Shown here: piece by piece, positions 841-63,696 of the stretch
How positions within the stretch are numbered: position 1 is the stretch's first letter
How the letters are laid out: each line of letters starts with the position of its first letter
From: an uncultured Actinomycetes bacterium
GTDB taxonomy: Bacteria > Actinomycetota > Actinomycetes > S36-B12
Assembly (NCBI GenBank): GCA_963755335.1
Contig: CAVWJW010000004.1
Span: 396,473-460,472, forward strand
Direction of reading: 5' to 3'
DNA length: 64,000 nucleotides
Position numbers and translations under genes: made by a program
The notes under the pieces: generated by a model
The model's input: the letters and a program-made list of their open reading frames with translations, nothing else
What the model was told of the DNA's origin: nothing
The model's database searches: none

Positions 841-897
841 GGATCGAAGCCCGACGTCCGATCCTCGTCGCGCCAGACCGCTTCTCGTCTCGCACAA
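841..897 (+). repeat. highly degenerate copy of tRNA-Phe-derived att-like repeat
   Basis: ggatcgaagcccgacgtccgatcctc...ttctcgtctcgcacaa aligns by eye with gggtcgaaccgccggcccttccgatcttc...ttctcggccctcacaa at 42202-42262. Confidence 0.45.
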
Positions 898-936
898 TCG
901 GGGACTCGAAGCCGTGGTGCTATCTACGATGGGGCC

Positions 937-1269
937 ATGGGAATCGACGATCGTGAAGCGCTTCGCCGACTGGTCGAGGAGGAAGGCGACGAAGAGGCAA
1001 CCGTCCTGCTGGTTGAGCTCGCTGTCGCGGAGGAAGACCAGGACTTGCTGCGGTCACTCGTCGATGCCGGCGTTGACAAGGCAGGAGGTGCCCTTGCCCA
1101 GCTGGCAGCGGACGAGGGCGACATCGCGACACTGAAGTGGCTCATCGATGCGGGTAACGACGAAGCGGCGGTCCTGCTCGGGGAGCTCGCTGAGGCCTCC
1201 GGGGACGAGGAACTTCGTCAGTACTTGATCGACTGCGGATACGACCCTCAGGTGGATCGCAGTTCGTGA
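937..1269 (+). CDS. small acidic alpha-helical repeat protein, hypothetical
   Basis: MGIDDREALRRLVEEEGDEEA...; internal repeats of L..LA...GD...L..L.D.G; decayed paralogues at ~47350 and ~47970. Confidence 0.65.
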   Translation: MGIDDREALRRLVEEEGDEEATVLLVELAVAEEDQDLLRSLVDAGVDKAGGALAQLAADEGDIATLKWLIDAGNDEAAVLLGELAEASGDEELRQYLIDCGYDPQVDRSS

Positions 1270-1403
1270 GTTCACACGGATCGACCCCCGCACAGGCAGG
1301 GGCCGATCCTCTTAGGAAATCTGAAGTCGTTCTCTCATGGGCATCACCTCTGTTCCATGGTGCGCCTACTCGGGACCGCCAATCAACACCCTTCCGGCAC
1401 GGT

Positions 1404-1710
1404 CTACTGGGGACCTTCGTCGAAGGGGCGGCCTTCGGACCGGCGCGAAGTCGTGTGGTCGAGCCTGGAGCACGCAGGCTCCGCTAAGTGGCTGAACCGG
1501 TAGAGCAGGTCCTCGCCCAGGTACGCGAGCAGTTCGAGCAGCGTGACGCCGGGGTCACTCGCGTTGTAGTCGGTCCAGTCGGGGTTGTGGACGGGGATGC
1601 GGCGGAGCAACTCGTCCCGGAGCTCGGCAAAGACGCCGGAGTCCACGAGGATGCGGATGGACTGCGATGCAGCGTCCCAAGCGACGATGCGAACGGCGGC
1701 ACCGAGCGTG
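1404..1710 (-). pseudogene. fragment resembling N-terminus of eCIS/phage baseplate J-like protein
   Basis: LLRRIPVHNPDWTDYNASDPGVTLLELLAYLGEDLLYR matches the WTD.N.SDPG.TLLEL motif of Afp11-type baseplate proteins; the rest of the protein is missing. Confidence 0.7.
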
Positions 1711-1970
1711 CTACGGCGTTCGGGTACCGGAGTGGGGGCGGGCAGGCACGTCCTGACGGTAGCGGGAGCGACCCGTATGCGCTAGGAGCGCAGCCCCTCC
1801 TCACGGTTCAGCGAATGCACTCGCGCGCTGACAGGACTCGCTCGGCACCGCAAAGGTGGCGCATGATGTTCGGCAGCGGCGGGAGACATTCACGAGCGGA
1901 CGTTCGCCCCTAGGCAACCACCATCGCAGCGTGACACAGTTGTGAAGTTCGATCACTAAAGGGCGTCGAC

Positions 1971-2252
1971 ATGCAGTCACAGATGCACATGGACTGGCAC
2001 TCCAGGTTGGCCTGGGGGCTGCTGGCCTGGCCCGTCATGATCGCATTGGCAGTGGTGCTCTCAACTGCGGCGGATCCACGTACCGTGAGCAACCCGGTGG
2101 CGGTCACCCTTCTCAGCGCCGCAGAAGTGCTCGCTGCCACGATCGGAGTCCTGTTCCCTATCTGGTCCTTCGTCGCATGGGCAGAGCAAGACGACCGGCG
2201 CGGCACTCCCCACCCTCCTGAAGACGGCGCACGCGAATCTGGACAGTCTTGA
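1971..2252 (+). CDS. small two-TM hypothetical protein
   Basis: 93-aa ORF with two hydrophobic helices. Confidence 0.45.
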   Translation: MQSQMHMDWHSRLAWGLLAWPVMIALAVVLSTAADPRTVSNPVAVTLLSAAEVLAATIGVLFPIWSFVAWAEQDDRRGTPHPPEDGARESGQS

Positions 2253-2385
2253 GCGCCAGCGGTCGGCGCTGCTCAGGCGACCGCCGTCGGCGAGGCGGGA
2301 GCCAGCGTTCACTCGCCAACAACTAATCGACGCCAAGCGGAACGTGGGTCCTGGGAGGCAACTCTCGGCAGATCGGCAGACGCCG

Positions 2386-2565
2386 TCAGCCGGCATCAAC
2401 CTCAAAGAGGAAGATCGTCGTCCCAACTGATTCGGTGACGGTCTTAACGTCTTGGAAGGCTTCGGCGTGCAGGGTGGCCATCACATCATCAAGGCTGGCG
2501 AAGTCGGCCTCAAGGATCCAGCCGACCTCTCCGGCTTATCCGGTTCCAACTTCGTCGAATCCGTG
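2386..2565 (-). pseudogene. remnant of small EthD/Dabb-like protein
   Basis: Reverse strand reads EVGWILEADFASLDDVMATLHAEAFQDVKTVTESVGTTIFLFEV; homologous remnant at ~62150-62365 (+). Confidence 0.4.
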
Positions 2566-2643
2566 AAAGGGAAGTCGTCGCGTCACCGCGTGCCCGCTGC
2601 GCCGTACGAACACCGCCTGCAAGTCTCCTAGCACCTGTTGCGA

Positions 2644-8044: not shown

Positions 8045-9635
8045 ATGGCTGACCTGCCGAGCATTCCCCGAGAGTCGTTCGGCGCGCCGCCAAGACGCGA
8101 GCGGGGTCTGCCCGGCACGAGCAGGACGGTGCCGACAGCACCCGATCTCGTGGCTGACTCCGTCGTGACGCGCCCGCTCGCCCAGCTCATGGCCGAGTCC
8201 GCACCTCGATCCACGATCGGGGTCGTCATCGAATTGCGTTCGAGCCACCCGGAGGGCGTGGCCGGCGCAGCGGCCGATGTGCTTGGTTGGCTGTCGGAGA
8301 TCGCGCCGAGGGCACTCGTCCGACGAGGGCAGTCCTCCGTGTCCAACTACGTGTCGGCTGGTCTCACCGCGAGCCAGATCCGCCAGCTCGTGCAGGCGGA
8401 CGGCAAGGCCGACGTGCGAGCCAAGGATCTCGGTCTGGGCGCCCCACATGATCCCGCCAACGCGCCGACGGCAGCGGGATCGCGTCCCGCGCCTCGGTAC
8501 GCCATCGATCGCATGTGGCCGAACTTCGAGATCCACAATCTCATCCATCGGAGTGTCGTCACCACGAAGTCCGACGCGTCGCAGCGCGCCTTCGAGGCGA
8601 CCGGCGAGGGAATCGTCTGGGCCGTGCTCGACTCGGGAATCCAGGCGGACCACCCGCATTTCGCCACTCATCGCAACACCGACCTGCCGGGCCAGCTGAA
8701 GCATATGGACTTCACTGATGGCTCCAGCGATCCTCTGGTCGACGAAGCCGGTCATGGAACACATGTGGCCGGCATCCTGGCCGGCGAGCAAGTGGCAGCG
8801 CCGGGGACGAAGCTGGTGGCGGCGACGTGGTACCAGGAGGAGGGCTCGGGACTGTCCGGGGCGCGGGTGGAGCTGGATCATGTCCGGGGCATGGCCCCTC
8901 GCACCACGTTGCTGTCCTGCAAGGTCCTGCGTGGCGACGGATCCGGAGACGTCACGGCGCTGCTCGATGCACTCGAGTACATCTCGGACCTGAACAAGGG
9001 TGGCCGTGAGCTCAACGTGCACGGTGTCAACTTGTCGGTGGGCTACCCGTTCGACCCGTCATGGTTCGGGACGGGTCTCACCCCGGTCTGCCGAGAGGTC
9101 GATCGATTGGTGCGCACCGGCGTGCTCGTCGTCGTGGCGGCTGGCAACAGCGGTTACGGCATCGCCCTGGATGCTGTCCAGGGCGGGAACCCGCAGATGC
9201 ACCTCGGCTTTGCGATGACGATCAACGATCCGGGCAACGCCGAGCGAGCCTTGACAGTCGGTTCCACGTCGGTGCAGCCCGCATCTTTCGGGCGTTTCCT
9301 ACTTCTCCTCCAAGGGACCGACGGGAGACGGCCGAATGAAGCCGGACCTCGTGGCGCCGGGCGAGCGGATCGTGAGCGCCGGTGCGGGGGAGCTGCTTCA
9401 AAGGGCGTTGCAGCGCGACAAGGACGCGACGTACGTGGAAGACAGTGGGACGTCGATGGCCGCCCCGCACGTGTCGGGCGTCGCCGCCGGCCTGCTGTCC
9501 GTCAATCGGGAGTTCATCGGCCGCCCTGAGGAAGTGAAGCGGATCCTCATGGATACCGCCACCGACCTGGGTCGGGTTCCGACGTTCCAAGGCAAGGGTC
9601 TAGTCGATTCCATGCGCGCCATCCAATCCGTCTGA
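8045..9635 (+). CDS. S8 (subtilisin-family) serine peptidase, frameshift near 9280-9300
   Basis: Catalytic triad motifs [14 protein letters not shown] and [12 protein letters not shown], plus oxyanion motif AAGN; last motif lies in ORF 9336-9635; no signal peptide. Confidence 0.9.
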
Positions 9636-20812: not shown

Positions 20813-21043
20813 GTATGTCCCCCATTTCGACCTCGGCCGATCTGCCTTGGGGGTCTGTTCGGCGTGGTCGCGCGGTGCAGTTGCCGAGGGATCGCTTGTC
20901 CGGGGTGCGACGTATCGTTGGTAGTGATCAGGAGTCCTGGCGATAAGCCCTCCGGCTTGCCAGGCGCCAACCGCGCACCGCGCACGGTGGCCCCGGAGGA
21001 AGATCCGCCCCTCGAAACGGGGGGAAGAGCGTAAGGAATCCTC

Positions 21044-21668
21044 ATGCGATCGTTCAAGAACGTCACTCCTGCTGAGATCGAGGCCGCCTTTCAGGAGCAG
21101 AAGGAGCGGCTCCCTATCTACTCCGAGACAGCCGCCTTGGCAGCAGCCGTCGTGGTGCGCCCCGACCTGGCTCATTCGGCGCTGGTCGGGATGGCTGTGC
21201 AAGGTCTGCCGGCGCGTGCCGTTGCCGAGCGCCAGCCATGGTCGTGGCTCGGCTGCGAGACCTGTCGCGTCGTGGATGCGCGCGCGGCGTCACTGTTCGG
21301 CGGCAGACGGATCCTTCCGCTGGGCCAGCACTCGATCATGAACGGCGTCAGGCATCCGGCTGTCGACGCCTGATGGACCTGGGCTGGACGCCAAGTTCGA
21401 GCAGTTCGTCGCGCTCGGGCATGGCTGGAAGGACCTGTCACGGTGGGCCGCCGTCGAAGGAGATCGCCTCGCCGCGACGGTGCCTGTTGAGGACTGGGGG
21501 CCATCCGAGTCAGTTCCCCTTGCCACTTGGCGAGAGTGGTTCCCATCCGGTCGCGCCGCGTCGGCGTGCGCGTTCACCCGGCTGATCGCCGAGCAGCAGC
21601 CGTGGCTGGTGGAGATCGATCCGCGCGTCGGCGACGTGGACTGGCTGACGGTGGGTCGGTGTTCATGA
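21044..21668 (+). CDS. hypothetical protein, probably one gene with frameshift near 21350
   Basis: RBS aagga; ORF 21044-21373 continues in another frame as ...LDAKFEQFVALGHGWKDL... to 21668. Confidence 0.45.
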
Positions 21669-21841
21669 GTGGGGAACCGATCTGGTTGGACTGGGTGGAG
21701 TCCGAGGTGACGGACCTGACGGGCGAGCAACTGCGGGCCTTCGTCGACGAATGGCACGGCAAGGCGGAGCGGTATCTTCGCGAGCAGCAGCGTGGGCAGC
21801 TCGCACGCGGGAGCGAAGACCCGGCGCGTCGAGGGAAATGA
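21665..21841 (+). CDS. small hypothetical protein
   Basis: ATGA overlap with upstream stop; MSGEPIWLDWVESEVTDL... Confidence 0.4.
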   Translation: MSGEPIWLDWVESEVTDLTGEQLRAFVDEWHGKAERYLREQQRGQLARGSEDPARRGK

Positions 21842-23279: not shown

Positions 23280-23416
23280 TTGACCTTCGGATGTTTGCGT
23301 GGCCGATTCTCGCCTCTCACAGCGTCGTCGGTAGTAGACAACTATTGGTCTGCCGTCGCCTCACGGGAGCCAGCACGAACGGGCAAGTAGGGCAGAACTC
23401 AGGGCAGGTTGGTCGA
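23280..23416 (+). repeat. att-like repeat (core plus right arm)
   Basis: ttgaccttcggatgttt ... acaactattgg ... ctcacgggagccagc ... gggcagaactcagggcaggttggtcga. Confidence 0.8.
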
Positions 23417-28990: not shown

Positions 28991-29063
28991 CTCATTTCCG
29001 CGTTTGCGCCACTCACAAAGTCATTGGTAATCAGCAACTATTGGCTTGCCGTCGACTCATGAG
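28991..29063 (+). repeat. att-like repeat (degenerate core plus palindrome)
   Basis: ctcacaaagtcattggtaatcagcaactattgg...gactca nearly identical to 42256-42303. Confidence 0.8.
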
Positions 29064-37510: not shown

Positions 37511-37530
37511 TTGACCTTCCGATCTTTGCG
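37511..37530 (+). repeat. isolated att-like core
   Basis: ttgaccttccgatctttgc identical to 63367-63385. Confidence 0.7.
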
Positions 37531-42148: not shown

Positions 42149-42350
42149 GGGTTGCGGAGCTTCCACTTGTTGCGCTGCAACGACTTTGGTGGCCAGGGGC
42201 GGGGTCGAACCGCCGGCCCTTCCGATCTTCAGCCGACCCCGATCGATTCTCGGCCCTCACAAAGTCATTGGTAATCAACAACTATTGGCGTGCCGGCGAC
42301 TCACAGGAGCCAGCGAGAGCCAGCAAGTCAGGGCAGACATCAGGGCAGAT
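42149..42350 (+). repeat. best-preserved att-like repeat
   Basis: tgcgctgcaacgactt + tRNA-Phe 3' half + aagtcattggtaatcaacaact + gggcagacatcagggcaga. Confidence 0.85.
42187..42232 (-). pseudogene. 3' half of tRNA-Phe (anticodon loop to CCA), att-site duplicate
   Basis: Minus strand CTGAAGATCGGAAGGGCCGGCGGTTCGACCCCGCCCCTGGCCACCA; T-arm and CCA present, 5' half absent. Confidence 0.85.
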
Positions 42351-42453
42351 ATGTTGCACCGTCGCTCTCACGGCGTCCCGCATCCGGAGCAGGTTGAACT
42401 CCATCCGTACGTACGGGGTGCGCCGCGACGGCGAGAGATCGACAATCGACGCC

Positions 42454-43095
42454 TCATACGGACCCGCGACGGCGCTTGCCGGACTTGCCGGCGACGAGGC
42501 GGGCGTTGACCGCGCTTCGGACGATATCGATGATCTGGGGGTCATCGTGAAGGAGATACGCGATGTCGGCTCCCGTCAGCATCGTGCCCAGCTCGACGGC
42601 GAGGCGGACCGGATCAGACCCGGCGGGCAGTTCAGCACCGTCCGCGGCCCTGCGTGCTTGGTCCGTGAGCAGCGCGATCCACGCATCGTGTTCGGCAGCG
42701 ATCAGGTCACGCACGAGCCCGGGGCGGCTGCCGACCTCGGCCGCGACGCTCGCGAAGAAGCAGCCTCCCGGATAGTCGCGTCGTTCGACGTGGTCCAGGT
42801 AGGCCAGGCAGAGGGTACGCAGTTGGGGGAGCCCGGGAGGGGCCGTCAACGCGGGCTGCACCACCTGTTGCACGAACACTGATCGGGCGTGCCCGATGAC
42901 GGCGCGCTGCAGTTCCTCTTTCGACCCGAAGAGGCCGAAGACCCCGCTCTTGCTCATCCCCGTGGCGGTGGCGAGCCCGGCCATCGAGAGGCCGTCGATT
43001 CCTTCCACCGTGGCGAGGGCGGCCGCAGCCTCAAGGATCGCCTCGCGCGACCGATCCCCATCCGTGCGAGATGGTCGTCCGGGAGTGTTCGGCAC
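42454..43095 (-). CDS. TetR/AcrR family regulator
   Basis: ILEAAAAL...G.SKSGVFGLFGSKEEL; GGCFF. Confidence 0.9.
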   Translation of the reverse strand: MPNTPGRPSRTDGDRSREAILEAAAALATVEGIDGLSMAGLATATGMSKSGVFGLFGSKEELQRAVIGHARSVFVQQVVQPALTAPPGLPQLRTLCLAYLDHVERRDYPGGCFFASVAAEVGSRPGLVRDLIAAEHDAWIALLTDQARRAADGAELPAGSDPVRLAVELGTMLTGADIAYLLHDDPQIIDIVRSAVNARLVAGKSGKRRRGSV

Positions 43096-43103
43096 CTAGA
43101 CAA

Positions 43104-43156
43104 ATTAGCACGCACGAGCGTACGGTCTACTTGTCCGCACGATCGTGCCAACTAAT
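43104..43156. promoter_or_regulatory. probable TetR operators in divergent intergenic region
   Basis: Perfect palindrome GCACGATCGTGC (43137-43148) and imperfect CGCACGAGCGTACG (43111-43124). Confidence 0.6.
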
Positions 43157-43168
43157 GAAGGGCGTTCG

Positions 43169-43708
43169 ATGTCCCCCTCGACTGCGCCAGCCCGTGAAAG
43201 ACAAGCCCCTCTCCGCAAGGCCTACGTGAACGATCCCTCGTTGGCCATCACCACCAAGCACGTGGTGTCTCGGCAGACGGACGACACCGACACCTGGCAC
43301 GGCGTCGTCGGCTCGCCGCAGTTTCCTGGCACGACCTGGAACTACGGGATCGATGCCAAGGTCGGCGGTGACGACGATCTGCCCAACCCTGGCCACCTGC
43401 TGTGCGCCGCACTCGCCGCGTGTCTGGAGAGCACCACGCGGGCGATGGCCGAGCACCTCGACATCGCCATCGCTGAGCTCGATGTCGAGGTCGTCGGCGA
43501 CGTCGACGCACGCGGCTGCCTGGCCATCGACCCAGCCGTCCGATCCGGCTTCCGCCACATCGACGTGGACGTACGCCTCCGAGCCGCCCCGGGCACCGAT
43601 CCCACCAGGCTGCGAAAGCTATTCGTCCTCGTGGAGGAACTCTGCGTCACCTTGGATACCCTCCGCACGGGAGTGCCTATAGACGTGCTCACCAAAGCGA
43701 GCACGTAG
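43169..43708 (+). CDS. OsmC family protein
   Basis: PNPG.LL.AALAAC, V.GD.D.RG, C.TLDTL. Confidence 0.85.
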   Translation: MSPSTAPARERQAPLRKAYVNDPSLAITTKHVVSRQTDDTDTWHGVVGSPQFPGTTWNYGIDAKVGGDDDLPNPGHLLCAALAACLESTTRAMAEHLDIAIAELDVEVVGDVDARGCLAIDPAVRSGFRHIDVDVRLRAAPGTDPTRLRKLFVLVEELCVTLDTLRTGVPIDVLTKAST

Positions 43709-43883
43709 CCAGCCGAGGTCAAGGTGTCGGCACCGTGAACGAGGTCCCCGGAGCGATGGCCCGTCCGCCAGTCGGTGTCGCCGCGATGCACGCGGATCAG
43801 TTCGCGAACGCTGAGGGGGTCGTCGAGCCCGGGATGCGAAGGACCTCAAGCGAGTTCAGGGTGCTCGCACGCAAGGAATTCAG

Positions 43884-45374: not shown

Positions 45375-45453
45375 TGGACCATCCGTGCTCCTCGAAGGAG
45401 TCATGATCGACTCACGGAGCCAGCGTCCGGCGGCAAGTAAGGGCAGAGTTCAG
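45375..45453 (+). repeat. internally deleted att-like repeat
   Basis: gactcacggagccagcg...ggcaagtaagggcagagttcag. Confidence 0.65.
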
Positions 45454-45689
45454 AACGGAAACGGCGGGCGAACGACCAGTTGCGCGCTGTACGCCTGATG
45501 TCCGGCGGTGCCACGCCGTGCGTAGCGCTGAGCGTCCACTACGCCGCCCTCAGGAATACGTTCAGCCCAGACCTTCTGGGCAGGGGGCGTATGCGGCGGA
45601 CGATGACGCGGACATCTCCGGAGACGACAGCGATTCGCGCATGAAGGCGATCAACTTAGGTGCGGAGAACGACGTCACCGACGAGATGG

Positions 45690-45845
45690 CTGAACGCGGG
45701 CGCGGCGCCGCTCGCATCGTCTGTTGGGACTCCGCATTGAAGTCCGTCCGCATCCTCGTGGACTCTGTTTCTTTGGCCAACTGCGAGAGGAGTCTGCTCC
45801 GCCGCATCCGCGTCCGCAACCCCGAGTGGACTCAGAAGAATGGGC
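45690..45845 (+). pseudogene. decayed paralogue of the baseplate-like fragment at 1404-1710
   Basis: AARIVCWDSALKSVRILVDS...LLRRIRVRNPEWT vs AVRIVAWDAASQSIRILVDS...LLRRIPVHNPDWT. Confidence 0.7.
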
Positions 45846-47349: not shown

Positions 47350-47472
47350 TTGGGGCCACGGGACTGGACGATCGTGAAGCCATGCGCCGACTGTTCGAGG
47401 AGGAAGGCGACGACGGGGCCGCCGTCCAGCTTGTTGAGCTCGCAGTTGAAGTAGGAAGCGGACTTGCCGCGG
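47350..47472 (+). pseudogene. truncated paralogue of acidic protein 937-1269
   Basis: GLDDREAMRRLFEEEGDDGAAVQLVELAV. Confidence 0.7.
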
Positions 47473-47621
47473 GTAGCACGACCGCATCGTTCCGGTACTG
47501 ATCGTTTCCGACGTTCGCGCCGGCCTTGGTGAAGACGGACGCGACGCGGACGGTGAACGTGGTCAACCCCGCGAGCAGCTGACACCGATCCCAAGTGCCA
47601 CCTCTCCACAGAGTCCACGTC

Positions 47622-47950
47622 TTGACCTTCCGTTCTTGCCGCCAAAGCGAGATTCTTCGTACCGACCGTGATGCCAGCGCACGATCCGGTGTTCGACCTC
47701 CAACAACGAAAGGGCAGCGATCACTTGCCTAGTGAATCAGTCCGGATTGCGAGGGCAGAAAGCGCTGGGCTGCAACGACTTTCCAGGACTACCGATTGCG
47801 GGGCCGAACGCCATTGACCTCCCGGCTCTTCAGCCGTCCCGGACCAATTCCCGACCTCACAGAGTCATTGGCATTAAGCAACTACTTGACACTGTCGGCG
47901 ACTCACGAGAGAGCGTGAACCGGCAAGTAGGGGCAGAGTTTGGGGTAGAG
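47622..47950 (+). repeat. double att-like repeat (core, ~193-bp unit, core, right arm)
   Basis: Cores at 47622 and 47814; colinear with 53344-53680 and 63367-63696. Confidence 0.8.
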
Positions 47951-47967
47951 ATGACGAACCATCAAGG

Positions 47968-48266
47968 CCCTGGGACTTGACCATCTTGAAGCGCTGCGTC
48001 GGCTGGTGGAGGAGGACGAACTCGACGAGGAGACCGCGGTCTTGCTGATTGAGAAGGCCGTCGCGGAGGAGGACCTCGATCTGATGTGGTCACTCGTCGA
48101 CTCTGCCGTTGATCAGGCGGGTGGCGCCCTTGCCCACATGGTGCCGAAACCAACTGACGTCGCGACCCCGAAGTGGCTCATCAAAACGATCATGTCGATC
48201 CGGTGGCCACGCTCGCTGAGATCCCGGACGTATCCGGGGACGAGGCACTTCGACAGTGGTGACTGA
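47968..48266 (+). pseudogene. decayed paralogue of acidic protein 937-1269
   Basis: EALRRLVEED...VLLIEKAVAEEDLDLMWSLVDSAVDQAGGALA...KWLI. Confidence 0.75.
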
Positions 48267-48464
48267 TGGGGAAGACGACCCTCGGGTGGATCGCGCTTCG
48301 TGAGCCACCATCACGGCTCGGGCCGGCCTCCGCTATCTCGGACGATGCCCTGGGGGATTCTCGAAGTCGGGAATTGGCGCCCTCACGCTTCAGCGGCACG
48401 TCGGGCCGCGGCAACTTCCGGCAACATTGCGACGCGACGCGACGACGCGGTCGAGGATTGCGGC

Positions 48465-49885
48465 ATGCAGACTCCGCGGCCGTTCTCGCCACATCCCGAC
48501 CGGCTGCTTCCGGCCGATCCCCAGGGGAGGGCCGTCGCGCGCCGGATCTACGAGGGCGTGCGCGACCTGCCCATCATCAGTCCGCACGGACATGTCCCGG
48601 CGAAGCTGGCTGTCCGTAGACCGGCCGTTCACGGACCCGACGTCGCTCCTGATCTCGCCAGATCACTACATCACGCGACTTCTCCACGCCTCAGGCGTGC
48701 CCGCGAAGCTGGGCGTCGGCCGAGCTCGTCTGACCGATGACGAGGCGCGCGAGGCATGGCGGATCTTCTGCGCGCACTGGTCCGGTCTTCGCGGCTACGC
48801 CGTCGCGCTACTGGATGGAGAGCAGCTGGCGGATATCTTCGAGGTCGAGCTACGACCGAGCGAGCAGAACGCCGACGCGCTTGTACGACGAGATCTCGGC
48901 CAGGCTGGCGTCCGCCGAGTTCCGGCCACGCGCCCTGCTTCGTCGCTTCGGGATCGATGTCCTGGCGACGACGGACGATCCGTGCGACGACCTGGAGGCT
49001 CACGCCACCGTCCGCCGAGCCGGCGACGTGTCGGCCCGCGTCGTCCCGACCTTCCGATCCGGATCGTTACCTCGAGCCCGGTCGCGCACGACTGGCCGGC
49101 GCTGGTGGACGCTCTGGGGTCAGCCGCAGACGTCGACACGGACTCCTATGACGGCTTCATCCACGCCCTGGAGATCCGTCGAGCGCACTTCATCGATCAC
49201 GGCGCCGTCTCGACCGACCACAGCCATGCGGACCTCGTCACGCTGACACTGGACGCAGGCGAATCTCGACGCATCTTCTCCGCCGGCGCGTCTCCGCCGC
49301 GACCGACGCCGAGAGTACGGCACTGCGTCGGCACCTACTCGTCGAGATGGCCCGAATGTCCGTGGAGGACGGGCTGGTCATGACACTCCACCCGGGCGTC
49401 GCGCGCGACCATCACGCACCGACGGCGGCCCAGGTACGGCGCGGATGTCGGGTGCGACATCCCGATCGCGGTCGAGTACACGCGCAGCCTGCAGCACCTG
49501 CTCGAGCGGTTCGGGACGGCCGGACGGCTTCCACCTGGTCCTGTTCTCGTTGGACGAGACGACCTTCTCGCGGGAGATCGCGCCGCTGGCCGGCTTCTAC
49601 CCCAGTGTCTACGCAGGGGCGCCGTGGTGGTTCCTGGACGCGCCCGACGCGATCCGGCGCTTCCAGGGAGCCGTCACCGAGACCACCGGATTCACCCGCC
49701 TGTCGGGCTTCATCGACGACACCCGCGCCTTCTGCTCCATCCCGGCCCGACATGACATGTCGCGTCGGCTGGACAGCTCCTACCTCGCCGAGCTCGTCGC
49801 GCGGCACCGGCTGGACGAGGACGAGGCGGTGTCGATCGCGCGCGACCTGGTCCTGGTCAACCCGAGACGGACGTTCAAGCTCTGA
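48465..49885 (+). CDS. uxaC: glucuronate isomerase, multiply frameshifted
   Basis: LPIISPHGHV, PDHYITRLL, LATTDDP, STDHSH, GAPWWFLD, GFIDDTRAFCSIPARHDMSRR. Confidence 0.88.
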
Positions 49886-49965
49886 CGGCGCCGAGGTGGG
49901 CCGGCGTGGCGACGTAGGCGGACGTGCCCGACGGGATCGCACGCAGGCGCCGTCATCGGATCCGG

Positions 49966-51380
49966 TCAGAGACCAGCATCGGCGCGTCGGAGGGCGTCCA
50001 GCTCGCGGACCTGGTCCAGCACCACCTGGCGCACGACCGCATTGTCGGAGAGCGACGACGCGTACCCCTCGGCCAGTGGGCGGCCGACCCGCGGAGCGCA
50101 GCGAGTCAGCCTGAGGGTCGTTCACCGGGGTCCCTGCCCCGCAGGTGCAGGACCCAGGCCGCCAGGGCGCGCGTCGCCCCAGTCGCGACCGCTCCCTGGT
50201 CGAGCCGCGCTCGAAGCACCGGGAGGATCCGCGCCGGCAGCTTCTGCGAGCCGTCGGCCGCGATCTGCGCGAGCAGATGCCGGATGCGCGGGTTGGCGTA
50301 CCGGCGCCAGCAGTGCCGCGCGGTACGCGTCGACCTCAGCGCGGGGAGGGGCAGCACCCCGGCAGCGTCGTCCCACCACTCCTCCACCCAGCCGCGGACC
50401 GACGCGTTGCCGATCGCGTCCGCGACGGTCTCCGAGCCGAGCAGCGGCGCTGCGTACGCCATGAGGGAGTGGGATCCGTTGAGGAGCCAGAGCTTGCGGT
50501 GCTCCCACGGCACCAGGTTCTCGACGAAGCGCGCCGCTGAGGTCTCCCACGCGGGACGGCCCGCCACGAAATCCCCCGACAGCACCCACTCCGAGTAGCG
50601 CTCGGTGACGACGCAGGCGAGGTCGTCGACCCCGGTCCGCCGGAGGAGGTCCGCGCGGTCCTCTCCGGTCGTGCGCGGGGTGATGCGGTCCACCATCGTC
50701 GTGACGAAGGTGCAGTAGTCGGCGACCCAGGTCGAGAGTGACGGGTCGACGACTTCTGCCAGGTCGAGGACGACCTGCCGGACCACCTGACCGTTCCCCG
50801 GCAGGTTGTCGCACGGCACGAACGTCATGCCGCCGAGCCCTGCGGCCCGTCGGGCGAGGAGTCCCGCGACGAGCTTGCCCGGTGCAGTCACCGTGTCGGC
50901 GGCAGCGGGACCCTGCCGCAACGAGGCCACGTCGGAGGCCACGCGCGGATCATCGACGTCCAGGGCACCGGTGCCGCTGCGGCAGTAGCCGGCCTCGGTC
51001 ACGGTCGAGGTGACGATCGAGAGATCGGCGAGGCGGAACGTAGCCCTCCAGCGGTCCAGGTCGACGGAGCCGTGGACCTCGGAGATCGACGACATCACGA
51101 ACGGCTCATCGTCTGAGGCGTCCCGCAGCAGGAGCGTGTAGAGGCCTTGCTGCGCGACGAGGCCCGCGGGGGGCTCGGTCCGGCCGGCGAACGCGGCGAT
51201 GCCCCACTGATGGCGTCGGTTGCCCGGTCGGTGTACCACGCCTGGTGTGCGCGGAAGAAGTTGCCGAGACCGAGATGCGCGATGCGCACGGGGGCCGCGG
51301 CCCTGCCATCGTGATCGCGCGAGAGGCGCCGCGCGATCGTCGGTCGTCCGCCGGATGCGTCCACGGCTGAGACCCTACGG
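49966..51380 (-). CDS. mannitol dehydrogenase family (D-mannonate oxidoreductase, UxuB-like), frameshifted
   Basis: [55 protein letters not shown]. Confidence 0.88.
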
Positions 51381-51544
51381 CGGCCCGACGAACCGCACAG
51401 CGGCTCGTGCAGCGCGGGGCGACGGTTGCTCCCGTGCGGGAACCGGGAAGCATGCCGACCAGCAGGCATCCATCGGCCACCGGCCCGAGCCGGACGCAGT
51501 CCCGAACCGGAGTCCGCGCGGCAGCGAGCTGGAGGAGCCCGACC

Positions 51545-52780
51545 ATGAAGATCGTCTCCGCCGACGTCATCGTCACCAGCCCCGACCGCAACTTCGTCAC
51601 GCTGACGGCTGACGACCGACGACGGCCTGGTCGGCATCGGCGACGCCACCCTCAACGGGCGCGAGCTGGCGGTCGTCGCCTACCTGCGCGACCACGTCGT
51701 CCCGCTGCTGATCGGCCGGGACGCGCAGTCGCATCGAGGACACCTGGCAGTTCCTCTATCGCTGCGGCGTACTGGCGGCGCGGGCCGGTCACGATGGCGG
51801 CGATCGCCGCCGTCGACATGGCTCTGTGGGACATCAAGGGCAAGGCGGCCGGGATGCCGGTCTACCAGCTGCTCGGCAGGCGCCAGCCGCACCGGCCTGC
51901 ATGGCCTACGGTCACGCGTCGGGCAAGACGCTGCCCGAGCTGTTCGACTCGTGCGCGACCACCAGCAGCAGGGCTACAAGTCGATCCGCATCCAGACCGG
52001 CGTGCCCGGGCTCAAGTCGATCTACGGGATCGCCGCGCAGTCGAGCGAGCGGCGAGCGGTACGACCACGAGCCGGCGCAGCGTGGTGCCTACCCGGCCGA
52101 GGAGGACTGGGACACCCGCGCCTACCTGCGCCACGTGCCCGACGCGTGTTCGAGGCCGTGCGCAACGAGTTCGGCCCGGAACTGCCTCTGCTGCACGACG
52201 GCCACCACCGGATGACGCCGATCCAGGCCGCCAAGCTGGGCAAGTCCCTGGAGCCGTACGACCTGTTCTGGCTGGAGGACTGCACCCCCGCCGAGAACCA
52301 GGAGGCGCTGCGCCTGGTGCGACAGCACACCACGACTCCGCTGGCGATCGGCGAGGTCTTCAACACGGTCTGGGACTACCAGCGATCATCCGGGAGCAGC
52401 TGATCGACTACGTCCGCAGCGCCGTCGACGCACATCGGCGGCATCACCCGCTTCGCAAGAAGCTGCTCGACTACGCGGCCCAGTACCAGATCAAGTCGGG
52501 CATGCACGGGCCGACCGACATCTCGCCGGTCGGCTGGCCGCCGCGATGCACCTGGGGCTGTCGATCCACAACTTCGGCATCCAGGAGTACATGCAGCACG
52601 GCGCCAAGACGGACAGCGTCTTCCGGCAGTCGTTCACGTGGACGGACGGCTACCTGCACCCTGGCGACGAGCCGGGGCTCGGCGTCACCCTCGACGTCGA
52701 CGAGGCCGGTAAGTATCCGTACGAGCAGGCTTACCTACCTTCCCAACCGGCTGGCCGACGGCACGGTGCATGACTGGTAG
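51545..52780 (+). CDS. manD: D-mannonate dehydratase (enolase superfamily, ManD/RspA), frameshifted
   Basis: [57 protein letters not shown]. Confidence 0.88.
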
Positions 52781-53271
52781 ACCCCCTCATCGTCGTCATG
52801 GGCGTCTCGGCTGCGGCAAGTCGAGCGTCGGCCGCGGACTGGCCGACCGCCTCCACCTCCCGTTCGAGGACGCCGACGACCTGCATCCGGCCAGCAACGT
52901 GCACAAGATGGAGGCGGGCATTCCGCTGACCGACGAGGACCGGTGGCCGTGGCTGACGCTCGTCGGTGCACGACTCCAGCGCCTCCGATTCCGGCCTGGT
53001 GATCGCCTGCTCGGCGCTGCGGTACGCGTACCGCGACCTGCTCCGCTCCCTCGCGCCTGACCTGCTCTTCGTTCATCTCAAAGGATCCCGCGAGGAGTTG
53101 GCGTCGCGCCTGAGCGACCGAGTCGACCACTTCATGCCGCTCACCCTCCTCGACTCCCAGCTCGCGACACTCGAGCCCCTCCGACCGGACGAACGGGGCA
53201 TCACCCTGGACTGCGCCCTCCCCGAAAGCGACCTAGTACTGAAGGTTACGGAATCGCTGAACAGTCGCTGA
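52770..53271 (+). CDS. gntK: gluconokinase, frameshifted
   Basis: G.GKS P-loop, [29 protein letters not shown]...YRD, HFMP..LLDSQL.TLE. Confidence 0.88.
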
Positions 53272-53285
53272 CGGCCGCATGAGCG

Positions 53286-53680
53286 GCGGGTTGCGGAACT
53301 CGGCTGGAGGGACTTCGGCTGCCACGGTGCACGCCCGGAGCCGCCCACCTTCCGATCTTTGCCGCCAGATCACGACGCGTCGCGGCGACCGTCGTGGCAG
53401 CGTGCGATCCGGAAATTCGTGCTCCGACGCGAAAGGGCAGCGCCCCTTTCCAAGTGATTGAGTCTGGATTCGCCACAAGCGAAAGTTAATGCGCTGCAAT
53501 AACTTTCTCTTGTCGGCGTTTCGGGGCAGAGTGTCGTTGACCTCCCGATCTTCTGCCGTCCCAAACTGATTCTGGCTCCTCGCAAAGTCATTGGTATTAA
53601 ACAACTATTGGACTTGCCTCGACTCACGAGAACCAGCGTGAACCGGCAGGTAAGGGCAGAATTCAGGGCAGGTTGGTCGA
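53286..53680 (+). repeat. double att-like repeat preceded by decayed tRNA-Phe 3' half
   Basis: gggttgcgga...gacttcggctgccacgg...ccgcccaccttccgatcttt; second core at 53537; aagtcattggtattaaacaactattgg; gggcagaattcagggcag. Confidence 0.85.
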
Positions 53681-53933
53681 GCGCCCGCGAGCATGAATCG
53701 GTTGTGGCATCCCACATCTGTTCGTCGCCAGCTCATGGCCGCTCGGCGCGAAGGACCATGGGGACTGGTGCCCGGCTCGCCCGACCGTCGCGTCCTGCGC
53801 ACCCCGTGGGTGTTCCCGCCCGCGACAACCCGCTTCAGCTGGCCGATGGTGGTTGCGCGAACGCGTCTTCACACCTCGACGCCGAAAGCACTGCCTGGTC
53901 CCGTCGCAAGCGGCGCTGCCAAGCCGTCGCTCC

Positions 53934-55933: not shown

Positions 55934-56492
55934 CCCGAACGCCGCTACGGTCGGGCCTTGTGGCGGCTGTGCTGTCAGCCTCGATCGCCTTGGTGGGCCT
56001 GTCGGCGTGCAGCGGTTCACCTTCCTCCCAGACGCCAAGCATCGTCGGCAGCGCCCACGTCGGCGCTGCCCGGAGGGACCACGGCACCGGCTGAACCGGC
56101 CCGAATCATCTCCCCTTCCGCGTTTAGCCCTCCGACACGACGGAGGAGGACCGGCATAGTCAGTTCCTCGGCTGCAGCAGGTGTGAATCCCAGCGACACG
56201 AGTGCACCGGTTTCCCCTGGCAGGAGTTGGGGCTGTTGCCTTGACCCGTCTCGAAGGCCGCGCTGGTTTCCCGGGACTTCGGTCGCATCTCGCTTGCGGC
56301 CTTCGCCCGGCGCCCGGCGGTGTCGGGCTCGTGCGACCGTGACTTTGCCGCGGCTCTAGCGCGACCACTTGACCGGGCGAAGCCGTGTCGGATCCTTGGT
56401 GTGCGGCGTGTAGCTCACGCTCTCTCCAAACGTTCACCTAACCAACGGCACGTGGCAATGTCCGGCGCGCGGTGTCAGGCTGAACTTTCGTC

Positions 56493-56888
56493 GTGAGAGG
56501 GGCGTCAGTGACGTTGTCTTGTTCGGTGGCCACGTGCCGCCTTCCCCTGTTCAACGCGCTGTTCTGCGAGGCGCATGCGCAAAGGCAAAGAGCATTCGGT
56601 GTCGCCTTGATGACGCCTCTGCGCGCGCACCACGATCAAGGCTGCGTCATTAACGGATGCCGGCGTCGTGCTCGACGCGGACTGTGCGTTGAGCATCGAA
56701 GGCTGCTCAGCGCGGGGGATCACACGATCCTGGCGGCCCTTGTGGTGGCGTGCCTCGGCAGCGCGTCTGGGCACCGCTGCGGCTGCGGCCAGATCGCATC
56801 GGTATGGGCATGGGACGGGACCGGCCGCAAGGAGGACGTCCACCGGTGGGGTGCAGTCTGCTCCAAGTGCGCGAGATTCGGGCGCTGA
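56493..56888 (+). CDS. Cys/His-rich putative Zn-finger protein
   Basis: CSVATC...FCEAH, CVINGC...LCVEH, CGCG, CSKC. Confidence 0.4.
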   Translation: MRGASVTLSCSVATCRLPLFNALFCEAHAQRQRAFGVALMTPLRAHHDQGCVINGCRRRARRGLCVEHRRLLSAGDHTILAALVVACLGSASGHRCGCGQIASVWAWDGTGRKEDVHRWGAVCSKCARFGR

Positions 56889-57147
56889 CCAAGCGATCGT
56901 CTGTTGGTAACACTGACGAGTCATTCGTCGTGACGAGTGGACGTCCGATCGCCGGCGACCTGGTCGTCCCGTGGGTCGCCCGCGCGAGACTCAGTGGCCG
57001 GGGGCAGCGAGTGCACTTTCGCCAGAAGCTCCGTGGCGCGGCTTCAGAGGGTTCACCGCAAGCGCCTCGGACAGCGGGCATCCTCACTAGTTCCGCTGAA
57101 CAATGCCGGTTGGGCGGTGACGGGGTCAAGGCCTGGAGGTGGGCGTC

Positions 57148-57693
57148 GTGCGGGTGCTGGTCGTCGTGGAGAGCATGTTCGGCAACACCTACCGTGTCGG
57201 CGCGTCGGTCGTCGAAGGCCTGCGTGACGTCCACCCTTCGGTGACCGCCTACGTTGTCCGCGTCAACGACGTCCTGGCCGCCGATGTCGCCGACGCCGAC
57301 CTGCTGGTCGTCGGAGCGCCGACGCATTGGCGCGGCATACCCTCTCAGCGGACGCAGCACGAGTACCTCAGCGAGGCCGGCTTGGCGGCAGGCGTGACCC
57401 GAATTGGGACACCGATCGACCCCTCAGCCGCCCCGACGCGGATGCGTGACTGGCTGGGGACCCTTCCCCCGGTGGAGGCCGACCGCGCCGCGGCGTTCGA
57501 CACCCGCCTGGCGCGGCCGTTCGCGGGCGGCGCGGCGCCTCGGCTGGCGGGTCGGCTCGCCCGTCTGGGCTACACCCTGACCGGGGAGCCCACTGGATTC
57601 TTCGTGATCGGGATGGAAGGACCGCTGCGTCCAGGTGAACTGGATCGAGCGCAGGACTGGGGCTATGAACTGCTCTCGCCCCTGCTCGCCTGA
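57148..57693 (+). CDS. flavodoxin family protein
   Basis: ESMFGNT, DLLVVGAPTH, AAAFDTR, GPL..GELDRA..WG. Confidence 0.88.
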   Translation: MRVLVVVESMFGNTYRVGASVVEGLRDVHPSVTAYVVRVNDVLAADVADADLLVVGAPTHWRGIPSQRTQHEYLSEAGLAAGVTRIGTPIDPSAAPTRMRDWLGTLPPVEADRAAAFDTRLARPFAGGAAPRLAGRLARLGYTLTGEPTGFFVIGMEGPLRPGELDRAQDWGYELLSPLLA

Positions 57694-58022
57694 CCGCGCC
57701 CGCTCGAGTCCTCCTTCGACCCAAAAGGCGTCCCCTCGGCGCATCCCAAAATCGAGGTGAATGTCCAGACGCGATGTCGACCCTTCATGGAGCCGGGCCA
57801 ATAGAGATCGTGTAGATCGACCGTGCTGGAGTGTTACCGACGCACGGGTTCTCGGATTCGGTGCGTGGAGTATGTGTGGGTCTCAATCAGGAGCCCGATG
57901 TCAGGGCTTCGCGCACCGCGAAGGAACTCCCGGTGAGCGGCGGGGAGGTGACACTTCGCATGTGATCCTGTGCGTCCCCGTCAGGCAGGTCGACGACTTC
58001 TTGAGCGGCGGTCGTCCTCGGT

Positions 58023-58995: not shown

Positions 58996-59013
58996 CGCAT
59001 CTCCCCACGCCAG

Positions 59014-61381: not shown

Positions 61382-61398
61382 CGGACCTCCACCTCCGA

Positions 61399-61435
61399 CG
61401 TACGCTACCGTATGTTATCCATACGGTAGCGTACG
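61399..61435. promoter_or_regulatory. probable TetR operator
   Basis: Perfect 16-bp inverted repeat CGTACGCTACCGTATG-ttatc-CATACGGTAGCGTACG between divergent genes. Confidence 0.75.
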
Positions 61436-61438
61436 GTC

Positions 61439-62074
61439 GTGGTGTCGACAAGGGGTTCTCAGCCGGTGCGGCTCGATCGCGCGGCCTGGACGGAAGCGGC
61501 CCTGGAAGCTCTCTCGCGGGGCGGAGTTCCGGACGTGGCGGTGGAGCCGATCGCCGCACGCCTAGGCGCCACGAAAGGGAGCTTTTACCACCACTTCCGC
61601 AACCGTCGCGAGCTGCTCCAGGCGGCGCTGGAACTCTGGGAGAGCCGCCACACCCTTCAGGTGAACGCGATGGTCGGGCAGGTAGCGGACACCCCACGGG
61701 CACAACTGGCCGTCCTGGCCAGGACAGCGGTGCGCATGGCGGAGGACGACCCGATCGGCTTCCGACTGCTCCCCAGCGCTGCCGATCCACTCGTCGCGCC
61801 CGTGGTGACTCGGGTCACCGGTCAGCGCCTTGACTTCCTCACGGAGTTGTACCGGCGTAGCGGGCACGGCGCGCACCGGGCTCGCCAACTGGCGCAGCTC
61901 ACGTACAGCCTCTACCTGGGACACATGCAAATGATCTACACGACGCCGGATGTCCTTCCGCAATCGTCCGTCGCTCGGCGTGAATACCTTGAACTAGTCC
62001 TCGACACCCTGGCCAACGCAGCGCCCGCCCGGGCAGCTGATTCAAAGAGGCCTGCCCGGCGGAAGACCCGTTGA
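61439..62074 (+). CDS. TetR family regulator
   Basis: W..AAL..L..GG...VAVEPIA..LGATKGSFYHHF. Confidence 0.9.
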   Translation: MVSTRGSQPVRLDRAAWTEAALEALSRGGVPDVAVEPIAARLGATKGSFYHHFRNRRELLQAALELWESRHTLQVNAMVGQVADTPRAQLAVLARTAVRMAEDDPIGFRLLPSAADPLVAPVVTRVTGQRLDFLTELYRRSGHGAHRARQLAQLTYSLYLGHMQMIYTTPDVLPQSSVARREYLELVLDTLANAAPARAADSKRPARRKTR

Positions 62075-62605
62075 GCTTTCGAATGGGACTAGCGCAGGAG
62101 TTTGCGCCGAAGCGACGACCTGCGGATCGCCGGACCTACCCAGTCGGGTCAAGGTCGGCTGGAAATGCGGTCATCTGAGGCCGCTCAGAAGACGGCGTTG
62201 GAAGTGCGCTCATGCGGTCATCGCTTCAGCGCCCCGAGGATGACCCAAGCGGGCCGGAGCCTTTGGTGTCTATCTGGCCAACAAAGACGACCCGACCAAC
62301 GGTTCACGCCGAAGCCTTCCAGGATGCCAAAGGCCGTCACTGAGTCGGTGGGTTCGACGATCTGTAATGCGGAGCACCGTTGCCTCGCGTCACGTCGTAC
62401 CAGTCGTGCACGCCGATACGACAACGAATGGACTTGCGCGCCGGGAACGGGTCAGCCACGTCGCATCCTCGTACTTGCATTTGAACTCGACCGGTGGTCC
62501 CTGAAGGCCGTTGACGACGAAACTCCGGCTCTTCTGGACTCCCCTCGCGGACGCCGCAGTCGAGAATGCCACGGCTCCCAGGGACGTCGGGTGAATGGGG
62601 CGCCG

Positions 62606-62989
62606 TCATGTGAGGGCTGCGGCCATTCCCGCCTGATCGGCATGGATAGACCAGCACTCGACGGCCCGACCGTCACGGAAGTGAAACACCAGGACCTCGC
62701 CACTGGCGAAAGGCGTGGGCTTGTCCCAGCGATCGGTGAGCAGAACGACGACGTGATCGTCGTCGGCGAGGATGGCATGGACGTCCTGCTGGAAGGTGCC
62801 CTCGGTCACCTCAGCCACCTTGCCGAAGAAGCCGTAAACGGCCTCCCGGCCGCGGTATTCACCCGACAGGGCGCTTGTGCCGGCTACCCGCCAGACGATG
62901 TCCTCGCCCAGGATCCCACCCACGGTCTCCAGGTCGCCGGCGGCGAATGCCTGGAAGGCGGTCACAATCAGTTCAGCATCACGGTGCAT
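62606..62989 (-). CDS. SnoaL-like / NTF2 family protein
   Basis: AF..GDL, WRVAG...LSG.Y.GRE, DDDHVV, FHFRDGR. Confidence 0.85.
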   Translation of the reverse strand: MHRDAELIVTAFQAFAAGDLETVGGILGEDIVWRVAGTSALSGEYRGREAVYGFFGKVAEVTEGTFQQDVHAILADDDHVVVLLTDRWDKPTPFASGEVLVFHFRDGRAVECWSIHADQAGMAAALT

Positions 62990-63366
62990 GGCGGTCTCCT
63001 CGAGTGATCGATGCGAGCGGCAGTGAGGTCTTAGTCCTCGTCGCCCGGTGGTGAAGGGCGCGGCTGGGGGCCGCAGCCGCGGCGAACACGGCATCGGCAA
63101 CCAATACCCGGGCTTGGGCAATTAAGTCATGCCTTCGTCAAAGGTTCCCGAAGAATCCTGGGTGTGGCCGGTGGATCACTCATCGCGATACCGATTCACG
63201 GATCGATCGCACCGGCGCGTGCCGCGGAAACGCCGGGCCGACAAGTTGAGGACAAGCCATGTCGTCCCCCTCTCAATTGGGACAAAAGGTACGCTTCTGA
63301 TGCAGAGATTTCTAGGCGCCAGGCTGCCTGGATTCGGCCACACGCACCCGCTGAGAACGCTGGCCC

Positions 63367-63696
63367 TTGACCTTCCGATCTTTGCCGCCAAAGCACGATT
63401 GTTCGTGCCGACTGTGATGCCAGTACACGATCCCGGAATTCGACCTCAAACACGAAAGGGCAGCGCTCCTTTCCGAGTATATGAGTCTGGATTGGGAACG
63501 CGCGAAAGTGATTGCGCTGCAACAACTTTCGAACGTCGGCGTATGTGAGCAGAGTGCCGTTGACCTGCCGATCTTCAGCCGACCCCGATCGATTCTCGGC
63601 CCTCACAAAGTCATTGGTAATCAACAACTATTGGCGTGCCGGCGACTCACAGGAGCCAGCGAGAGCCAGCAAGTCAGGGCAGACATCAGGGCAGAT
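63367..63696 (+). repeat. double att-like repeat
   Basis: Cores at 63367 and 63560; gaaagtgattgcgctgcaacaactttc palindrome; right arm identical to 42222-42350. Confidence 0.85.

Follow-up and report, generated by a model that had tools for sequence, protein, structure and literature searches.

A tRNA-Phe-anchored island in an uncultured actinobacterium, probably built by tandem accretion of elements with a common attachment site

The window analysed here is a 64,000-nt stretch of the genome of an uncultured actinobacterium (positions 396473-460472 of contig CAVWJW010000004.1, designated C4, in assembly GCA_963755335.1, designated G000), and it carries a family of non-coding repeats resembling the attachment (att) sites of integrative elements. 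These repeats are derived from a tRNA-Phe gene. We consider it probable that the window covers most of a tRNA-Phe-anchored island that was built by tandem site-specific accretion of elements sharing one att family; the segments now present are integrase-less and resemble cis-mobilizable elements (CIMEs). This mode of island building has already been described; however, the present island is unusually long, free of integrase, and apparently splits its target tRNA gene. The host assembly consists of 8 contigs (3.82 Mb) with a GC content of 68-69% (genome value 0.687) and a marker completeness of 86%.

Att-like units and their link to tRNA-Phe

The 12-mer core CCTTCCGATCTT occurs seven times in the window with at most one mismatch (0.18 copies expected), exclusively on the plus strand, and the 16-mer TTGACCTTCCGATCTT occurs eight times with at most three mismatches (0.21 expected). 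A profile was built from the three longest copies (window 47595-47980, 53320-53700 and 63340-63720; the corresponding units U47, U53 and U63 match it by construction) and searched against the whole 3.82-Mb assembly with nhmmer --max. Twelve matches had E<=1e-3, and the other 14 rows had E>=0.077. Eleven of the twelve are located on the minus strand of C4 within 69 kb, and the twelfth is on the 33-kb contig C7 (8859-8979). Three of the C4 matches lie past the end of the window (two at 88593-88855 and one at 91989-92210, in window coordinates). The repeat-bearing stretch thus runs from window 23280 to 92239, i.e., 28 kb beyond the window, where it ends in the 5' half of a tRNA-Phe gene, and the island offers at least ten junctions in one genome.

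The initial annotation, which was made from the sequence of the window alone, had listed ten repeat loci, and nine of them proved to be real and on a single strand. The locus at 37511 is a lone core, and those at 33695 and 45375 are weak copies. The tenth, at ~841, had to be dropped: it has no profile match and does not come within three mismatches of the core. The similarity found nearby (930-1700) is paralogous coding-like sequence common to the flanks of U45 and U47 (930-1698 versus 45706-45831 and 47351-48304, 72-83% identity, one segment inverted); an open reading frame (ORF) at 757-1269 has a weak ankyrin-repeat match. The annotation had also named scatter throughout the genome in both orientations as the behaviour of a miniature inverted-repeat transposable element (MITE) or a repetitive extragenic palindromic (REP) sequence. 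Since the assembly search places the copies in one 69-kb single-strand stretch, plus one on C7, a dispersed repeat of the MITE/REP type is ruled out. The units and related features are listed in the table.

Table. Units, remnants and duplicated cassette heads (window coordinates)
Feature	Position	Strand	Evidence
U23, decayed unit: P arm with paired CTGCCCT motifs, degenerate core	23280-23416	-	nhmmer E=1.2e-23; motif pair at 23407
U29, coreless P-arm fragment	29006-29093	-	nhmmer E=5.1e-13; 94% identity over 48 nt to the U42/U63 P arm
U33, weak: P-arm remnant, core, decayed true-type tRNA 3' half, palindrome remnant	33696-33815	-	nhmmer E=4.1e-4
Lone second-type core (GCAAAGATCGGAAGGTCAA), end of a mostly deleted P' arm	37511-37526	-	exact 16-mer match
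U42, attR-type junction: P arm, core, tRNA-Phe 3' part, palindrome GTTGCAGCGCAAC (42170-42187)	42166-42373	-	nhmmer profile match
U42, tRNA-Phe 3' part: T arm, acceptor, CCA	42187-42232	-	
TetR-OsmC cassette head, copy A	42218-43745		99.7% identity to 63564-65091; Pfam TetR, OsmC
U45, distal P-arm fragment	45407-45471	-	nhmmer E=2.6e-5
U47, full: P arm, core, P' arm with pseudo 3' half (B module), second core	47597-47976	-	nhmmer E=1.3e-109 (seed)
Remnant second core (CCGGATCGGAAGGTC)	49048-49059	-	exact 12-mer on the array strand
U53, full unit	53328-53699	-	nhmmer E=1.1e-116 (seed)
U63, full; P arm identical to that of U42, 3' side a pseudo-type B module	63342-63719	-	seed copy; alignments
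TetR-OsmC cassette head, copy B, continuing to 65091 past the window	63564-64000		

Read in the orientation of the tRNA (minus strand), a full unit (U47, U53, U63) spans 300-380 nt and consists of a P arm, a core and a P' arm. The P arm (~140 nt) contains two direct CTGCCCT motifs 12 nt apart as well as conserved blocks such as CCAATAGTTG..TACCAATGACTTTGTGAG; genome-wide, the paired motif CTGCCCT-N5-TCTGCCC is found almost exclusively in P arms. The core of 17 nt, CTGAA(G/A)ATCGGAAGGTC, corresponds to the anticodon loop, the 3' anticodon stem and the variable loop of tRNA-Phe. At the beginning of the P' arm (~200 nt, the B module) there is a tRNA 3' half that has diverged and is non-functional (AACGGCACTCTGCCC..CGCCGAC); next come the palindrome AAAGTTGTTGCAGCGCAA(T)AACTTT and a block, GCGCTGCCCTTTCG, with the third CTGCCCT of the unit. 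The last part of the arm is a second core GGCGGCAAAGATCGGAAGGTCA, directly after which conservation stops and cargo starts. The CTGCCCT repeats may represent arm-type integrase sites.

Only U47, U53 and U63 are full among the units of the window. What is left of U23, U29, U33 and U45 is a decayed P arm, to which a core may or may not be attached, whereas U88 and U92, both past the window, are P' arms, U92 beginning inside the real tRNA. U88 and the remnants at 37511 and 49048 also belong to the decayed or internally deleted copies; the remnant at 49048 would fit a P' arm whose interior was deleted between two GATCG repeats. The copies had been described initially as progressively decayed. Some indeed are, but the family falls into two conserved classes, defined by whether the 3' half is of the true or the pseudo type, and does not form a single series. 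The same derived variant of the pseudo 3' half is present in G000 and three related species (G002, G008, G048); it is a conserved feature of the elements and not the product of random decay in place.

Conservation across species and the strong palindrome following the tRNA-like part could also be expected of a functional non-coding RNA or regulatory module (a tRNA-like small RNA, a terminator or a promoter block) that has multiplied. We regard this as hardly credible. With RNAalifold, a covariation term of +1.71 kcal/mol was obtained for nine P' arms and compensatory changes were seen in only 2 of 37 predicted pairs, the Rfam scan of the window returned nothing except an unrelated SAM-IV riboswitch, and the units stand at cargo boundaries regardless of the orientation of the neighbouring genes. 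The structured-RNA reading was rejected on the first two of these grounds.

The link to tRNA-Phe is provided by the two ends of the array. ARAGORN detected 45 tRNA genes in the assembly and no tRNA-Phe. The Rfam tRNA model gave one weak extra match (33.5 bits) at C4:488647-488711 on the minus strand (window 92175-92239), 1.65 kb downstream of tRNA-Glu and tRNA-Asp. Here, the 5' half of tRNA-Phe is perfectly preserved, with acceptor, D arm, anticodon stem and CTGAAAA loop, and after ATCGGAAGGTC it continues into the pseudo 3' half and the downstream sequence of the internal repeats. It is the sole tRNA-Phe 5' half of the assembly (C4:488685-488711), and the sole T arm and acceptor of tRNA-Phe are those of U42 in the window (42187-42232). 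Both of these are identical to the tRNA-Phe of relatives; the variable loop reads GGGCC instead of GGTC. The initial annotation had correctly recognized 42187-42232 as the reverse complement of a tRNA-Phe 3' part, if with an altered variable loop, and had correctly taken the repeats for tRNA-Phe-derived att-type sites in one orientation. It had proposed to look beyond position 64000 for an intact tRNA-Phe on the minus strand and a tyrosine integrase; the tRNA is there, 28 kb past the window end, but as a 5' half only, and the island contains no tyrosine integrase.

An intact tRNA-Phe is found at the same position in six relatives and in one metagenome contig, 27 nt to ~4.8 kb after tRNA-Asp. 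The spacing is 27 nt in G010, G021 and G048, 0.9 kb in G018, 2.5 kb in G013 and ~4.8 kb in the metagenome contig L023; in G000 the 1.65 kb between the two tRNAs (C4:488712-490354) contain small ORFs. As the spacer differs between relatives, the upstream side of tRNA-Phe is also variable. In Logan contigs of related organisms, the tRNA-Phe 5' half is joined at the core boundary to a 3' half that is intact, and some of these contigs link tRNA-Asp directly to tRNA-Phe. The Logan runs, each with <=0.20 of the sampled words, returned contigs of relatives only and are therefore uninformative on the split tRNA, circles or empty sites of G000.

We read the array as the result of successive integration of one attP family because its start, internal and end junctions show the structures expected from such a process. 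A tyrosine integrase would exchange strands within ATCGGAAGG. An element inserting beside a resident one would leave an internal junction of the type P(new)-core-P'(old), the end junction (U42) would be P-core-tRNA 3' half, and the start junction, past the window, tRNA 5' half-core-P'. The integrases either would have been lost, or the elements may always have relied on an integrase from elsewhere.

Exchange at the core and turnover of the cargo

The two copies of the TetR-OsmC cassette head (42218-43745 and 63564-65091) differ by 5 mismatches in 1528 nt (99.7% identity), and their identity starts inside the core; to the left of it the two differ, the true 3' half being present in one copy and the pseudo 3' half in the other. 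Furthermore, the arms of a unit have different affinities on the two sides of the core. U63 and the G008 unit G008a are 58% identical in the P arm and 87% on the P' side, G008a and the G002 unit 89% and 71%, and U63 and U42 100% and 63%, respectively. These alignments point to exchange at the core, where homology breaks off and arms are reassorted. Because position 37 of the loop is A in the real tRNA and G in the units, the crossover that produced U42 and U92 can putatively be bounded to ATCGGAAGG.

The comparison with relatives covered 33 species genomes of the genus (G000 included) as well as 16 genomes that represent 12 further genera of its order. With U63 DNA as query, five of the 33 genus genomes gave a match at E<=1e-6 (G000, G002, G008, G013, G048), and the 16 genomes from other genera gave none at E<=1e-3. 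The same units are present in the metagenome contigs L023 and L024. A first degenerate pattern of the P arm had no match in genome contigs; a second one matched only three assemblies, apparently those of G002, G008 and G048, plus one Acetobacteraceae metagenome-assembled genome (MAG), which is a likely chance match.

The arrangement of the units varies among these genomes. In G048, an intact tRNA-Phe is followed 3 kb on by a P arm with core and 1.6 kb later by a core with P' arm, after which further tRNA fragments occur. Two full units lie 8.6 kb apart in G008 and in L024. In G008 (L009), G013 (L008) and L023, the intact tRNA-Phe is directly followed by P'-arm-like sequence, which in the alignment of G008 and G013 terminates in a second core. 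In BLAST comparisons of the relatives' loci with G000, the units match (73-88% identity) and the inter-unit DNA hardly at all: the cargo at these sites differs between species while the units stay conserved, which agrees with the change of gene content that the initial annotation had expected. Sequence found in G018 and G048 at 9-50 kb on the downstream side of tRNA-Phe, and in G002 ~16 kb past the unit, matches G000 only upstream of the window (at about window -23500 to -28900), and the variable region of G000 therefore probably comprises ~118 kb. Downstream of tRNA-Phe, the genomes of the genus are hypervariable.

According to Pfam scans of 60 ORFs, the cargo of the G000 island consists of small accessory modules in multi-gene cassettes of 2-10 kb. 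Between 23 and 64 kb, these encode a PAS-GAF-HD-GYP protein, SigK/RskA, VOC, RibD_C, NAGPA, GT87 and Crp proteins, TetR with OsmC (twice), PEMT-like methyltransferases, fragments of hexuronate genes, a luciferase-like monooxygenase, two further TetR regulators, a cupin and a SnoaL protein; the HD-GYP, SigK/RskA, VOC, RibD_C, GT87, TetR/OsmC and hexuronate assignments bear out those made initially from the letters alone. Between 64 and 92 kb there are HxlR, methyltransferases, PAS-GGDEF-EAL proteins, an IS481-type transposase, a fragment of a Mutator-family transposase, a ribbon-helix-helix (RHH) protein, a PKD protein, SnoaL, RibD_C and a sigma-SnoaL fusion. Genes are found on both strands within and between cassettes, and several cassettes have their own TetR, HxlR, Crp or sigma/anti-sigma regulators. 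The composition of the island is foreign relative to its flanks: eight of nine inter-unit segments (window 23417-91988) have a GC content of 0.645-0.663, the exception being the hexuronate segment (47977-53327, 0.694), window 1-23279 has 0.670, and the flanks 0.70-0.72.

Some details of the cargo and its surroundings are worth recording. In the hexuronate stretch (genes at 49445-52403), the match of a 146-aa ORF to the UxaC profile (464 positions) is limited to positions 347-464, and a 150-aa ORF covers a part of the enolase C-terminal domain (MR_MLE_C); this cargo is decaying. The IS481-type transposase (L001:6712-7725, window 70240-71253) lies between two PAS-domain ORFs, one of them PAS-GGDEF, and the Mutator-family fragment is at window coordinate 75549-76400. 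The SAM-IV riboswitch (window 20926-21035, plus strand; 78.8 bits at a gathering score of 38) is located just upstream of a 109-aa ORF (21044-21373), and the surrounding region 20897-21792 has 87% identity to a G008 contig.

Recombinases, the split tRNA gene and alternative readings

The search for recombinases covered ~92 kb, from window position 1 to the tRNA-Phe half (C4:396473-488711), and neither the window nor the island has a match to PF00589, PF00239 or PF07508. The lack of an integrase in cis, noted initially for the 64 kb, is thereby confirmed and extended; as for the transposases, which had been stated to be absent as well, the only mobility genes among the 60 scanned ORFs, one IS481-type transposase and one Mutator-family fragment, lie past the window. 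In the whole of G000 there are nine PF00589 matches, none of them in the island or on C7, and no PF00239 or PF07508 match. The nearest PF00589 match (C4:523611-524192) lies 35 kb past tRNA-Phe, beside tRNA-Lys.

Related events can be found elsewhere in the genome. At tRNA-Thr(CGT), four same-strand 3' fragments are spread over 61 kb (C2:556398-617947), one of them adjoined by an integrase (C2:583846-585135), and five more are on C7, whose single Phe-type copy (8859-8979) is a P arm without a core. At tRNA-His (C3:10714-38776), the palindrome GTTGCGCTGCAAC, a 417-aa integrase frame and, 28 kb away, a 23-nt repeat of the tRNA 3' end are probably parts of an intact integrative element. Copies of the palindrome GTTGCAGCGCAAC are located behind 3' ends or fragments of tRNA-Phe, tRNA-Thr and tRNA-His and in front of a fragment of tRNA-Met, and the palindrome may be a shared att-site part of one element lineage. 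In the tRNA-Met case (C8:1965990-1967340), it stands between an integrase frame and a 3' fragment resembling tRNA-Met (CTCATAA loop); a second, weaker PF00589 piece suggests a frameshift in this integrase. The tRNA-Thr integrase was considered as an enzyme acting in trans on the Phe-type units and rejected, since its orthologues (in G003, G008, G009, G043 and G046) do not track the genomes with these units.

Several observations weigh against accretion of site-specific elements at tRNA-Phe, the absence of recombinase genes from the island being the first. No cognate integrase was found in the 20-60 kb downstream of tRNA-Phe in G010, G021, G018 and G048, no PF00589 match near the units of G002, G008, G013 and G048, and no integrase on the metagenome contig L023 (Pfam, 10 ORFs downstream of tRNA-Phe). 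Eight integrase frames of G000 gave no tblastn match in the loci L001-L016 at 1e-5 or in the metagenome loci at 1e-3. Integrase pseudogene fragments were not seen either, neither across the ten or more junctions of G000 nor near the arrays of four other species, although the decay of many autonomous elements should leave some, and searches of phage and plasmid collections and of viral contigs returned no free element carrying this attP. A related autonomous element with a matching integrase was not found in G000, G002, G008, G013 and G048; as these are MAG-type assemblies of 83-98% completeness from which mobile elements are easily lost, this does not prove that there is none.

The state of the tRNA gene is a further difficulty. 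Elements that target tRNA genes usually rebuild them on integration; here, the P' arm does not restore tRNA-Phe, and the only tRNA-Phe of the assembly is broken into halves ~50 kb apart, with no intact copy detected by ARAGORN or Rfam. As cells need tRNA-Phe to live, the split gene as assembled cannot be the whole truth for a living cell. A second copy may reside in the unassembled 10-14% of the genome, perhaps on an element supplying the integrase; the contig may follow a minority or chimeric path; or the island may be excised frequently.

The last group of contrary observations concerns duplicated cargo: 56318-57700 and 76643-78021 are 94% identical, and 62370-63323 and 85861-86817 are 87% identical. 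Homologous recombination and duplication have therefore also shaped the array. It is very improbable, however, that they did so for the most part, i.e., that a local repeat was multiplied by homologous recombination and segmental duplication, the likeness to tRNA-Phe going back to one old integration and the cassettes never having been mobile units. The paralogous blocks (one of 1.5 kb at 99.7% identity), the paralogy of the 757-1700 region to the flanks of U47 and U45, and the suitability of 300-380-nt repeats as RecA substrates would all be in line with this explanation. Nevertheless, the homology of the duplicated cassettes stops within the 17-nt core and not randomly in the 380-nt unit, arm similarity is discordant exactly across the core, other species have the same units with unrelated cargo, and the start and end junctions are reciprocal, exactly as integration into a tRNA predicts.

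The array could also be an active, integron-like platform, any core of which would still serve for the capture, excision and shuffling of integrase-less cassettes by a recombinase from outside the array (the integrase of another island, an unbinned plasmid or integrative and conjugative element, or a housekeeping recombinase). The arms conserved across species (73-88%) around unrelated cargo, their reassortment at the core, the near-identical cassette head adjoining two different cores, the lack of an integrase in cis in any of five genomes, and the pseudo 3' half conserved in four species, which would make integration safe only into array cores, all speak for such a platform. We nonetheless consider it unlikely: no trans recombinase was identified, the tRNA-Thr integrase does not track the units, the only recombinases seen in G002 and G048 are Xer-like ones and a single integrase that is partial or unrelated, no circles or alternative junctions were observed in the Logan contigs of relatives, a number of units show clear decay or internal deletions, and the cargo fragments (UxaC C-terminal, MR_MLE_C) suggest relics rather than a working system. 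Moreover, there is neither a common promoter nor a shared orientation of the cassettes. A more specific version, to which we give little credence, would make the array rather than the tRNA the target of a working capture platform. The decoy 3' half would confine safe insertion to array cores, the recombinase would come from another island, an unbinned plasmid or integrative and conjugative element, or the host, and one event would have split tRNA-Phe, which implies that a further tRNA-Phe is carried by an element or that excision is frequent and reversible. It is conceivable that a recombinase still works in trans.

On balance, accretion at tRNA-Phe remains our preferred reading. The enzyme class and the order of events that it implies, as well as any present mobility of the segments, are putative.

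Comparison with known systems

A close parallel is offered by CIMEs and tandem accretion in the ICESt1-related elements of Streptococcus thermophilus, where, according to the account in PMC5704250, direct repeats from the 3' end of the target gene flank the segments. As outlined there, an integrated element that decays while its attL and attR are retained becomes a CIME, beside which incoming elements then insert; att sites are thus kept without integration or transfer genes (PMC5704250). The island of G000 corresponds to such an array in that same-orientation repeats derived from the tRNA 3' end abut tRNA-Phe and the segments lack integrase and transfer genes. It differs in having at least ten junctions in a row with small cassettes of 2-10 kb, in that no cognate integrase or autonomous partner was seen in any of five genomes, and in its target, tRNA-Phe of an uncultured actinobacterium, with a non-functional element-borne 3' half.

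Tycheposon islands of Prochlorococcus are likewise tRNA-adjacent and contain scattered partial tRNAs and small adaptive gene sets; in the description of these islands, successive integrations push older elements inward and leave the partial tRNAs behind (10.1101/2020.12.28.424599). Tycheposons are reported in the same source to carry a tyrosine recombinase and hallmark replication genes, with fragmented integrases in the islands. Here, the 60 ORFs contain none of the hallmark replication, helicase or primase domains and no PF00589 match. The phylum is a different one, and the junctions have retained long conserved P and P' arms.

With the actinomycete integrative and conjugative elements (AICEs) of the pSAM2 type and actinophage attP sites, the units have in common the att identity extending from the anticodon loop towards the tRNA 3' end, as well as a high-GC actinobacterial host. 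However, AICE-type elements carry int, xis, replication and transfer genes and rebuild the target tRNA, whereas the present cassettes carry none of these genes and their P' arm does not restore it.

Integrons resemble the island as arrays of promiscuous cargo bounded by recombination sites, with a cargo that varies among relatives. They are defined by IntI, an attI/Pc platform, attC sites and promoterless co-oriented cassettes. The island has no adjacent IntI, no attI/Pc platform and no folded sites of the attC type (judged from the anatomy, which is that of a 300-380-nt attP-like unit with a tRNA-derived core; no attC model was applied), and its multi-gene cassettes have both orientations and their own regulators. 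The initial proposal of an integron-like array of integrase-less cassettes accordingly survives with respect to the cassettes and their tRNA-type att sites and not with respect to any integron-defining feature.

Compared with these systems, the island represents a clean multi-junction example of tRNA-anchored island assembly in an uncultured high-GC actinobacterial lineage, with the same junction family in four further species carrying different cargo. What sets it apart from a routine island are the attP-like junctions persisting without a cognate integrase in five genomes, the conserved non-functional 3' half and the split tRNA-Phe. Unless a trans-acting recombinase is found, the array is an ordinary fossil record of accretion; with such an enzyme, it would become a tractable model for the exchange of integrase-less cassettes.

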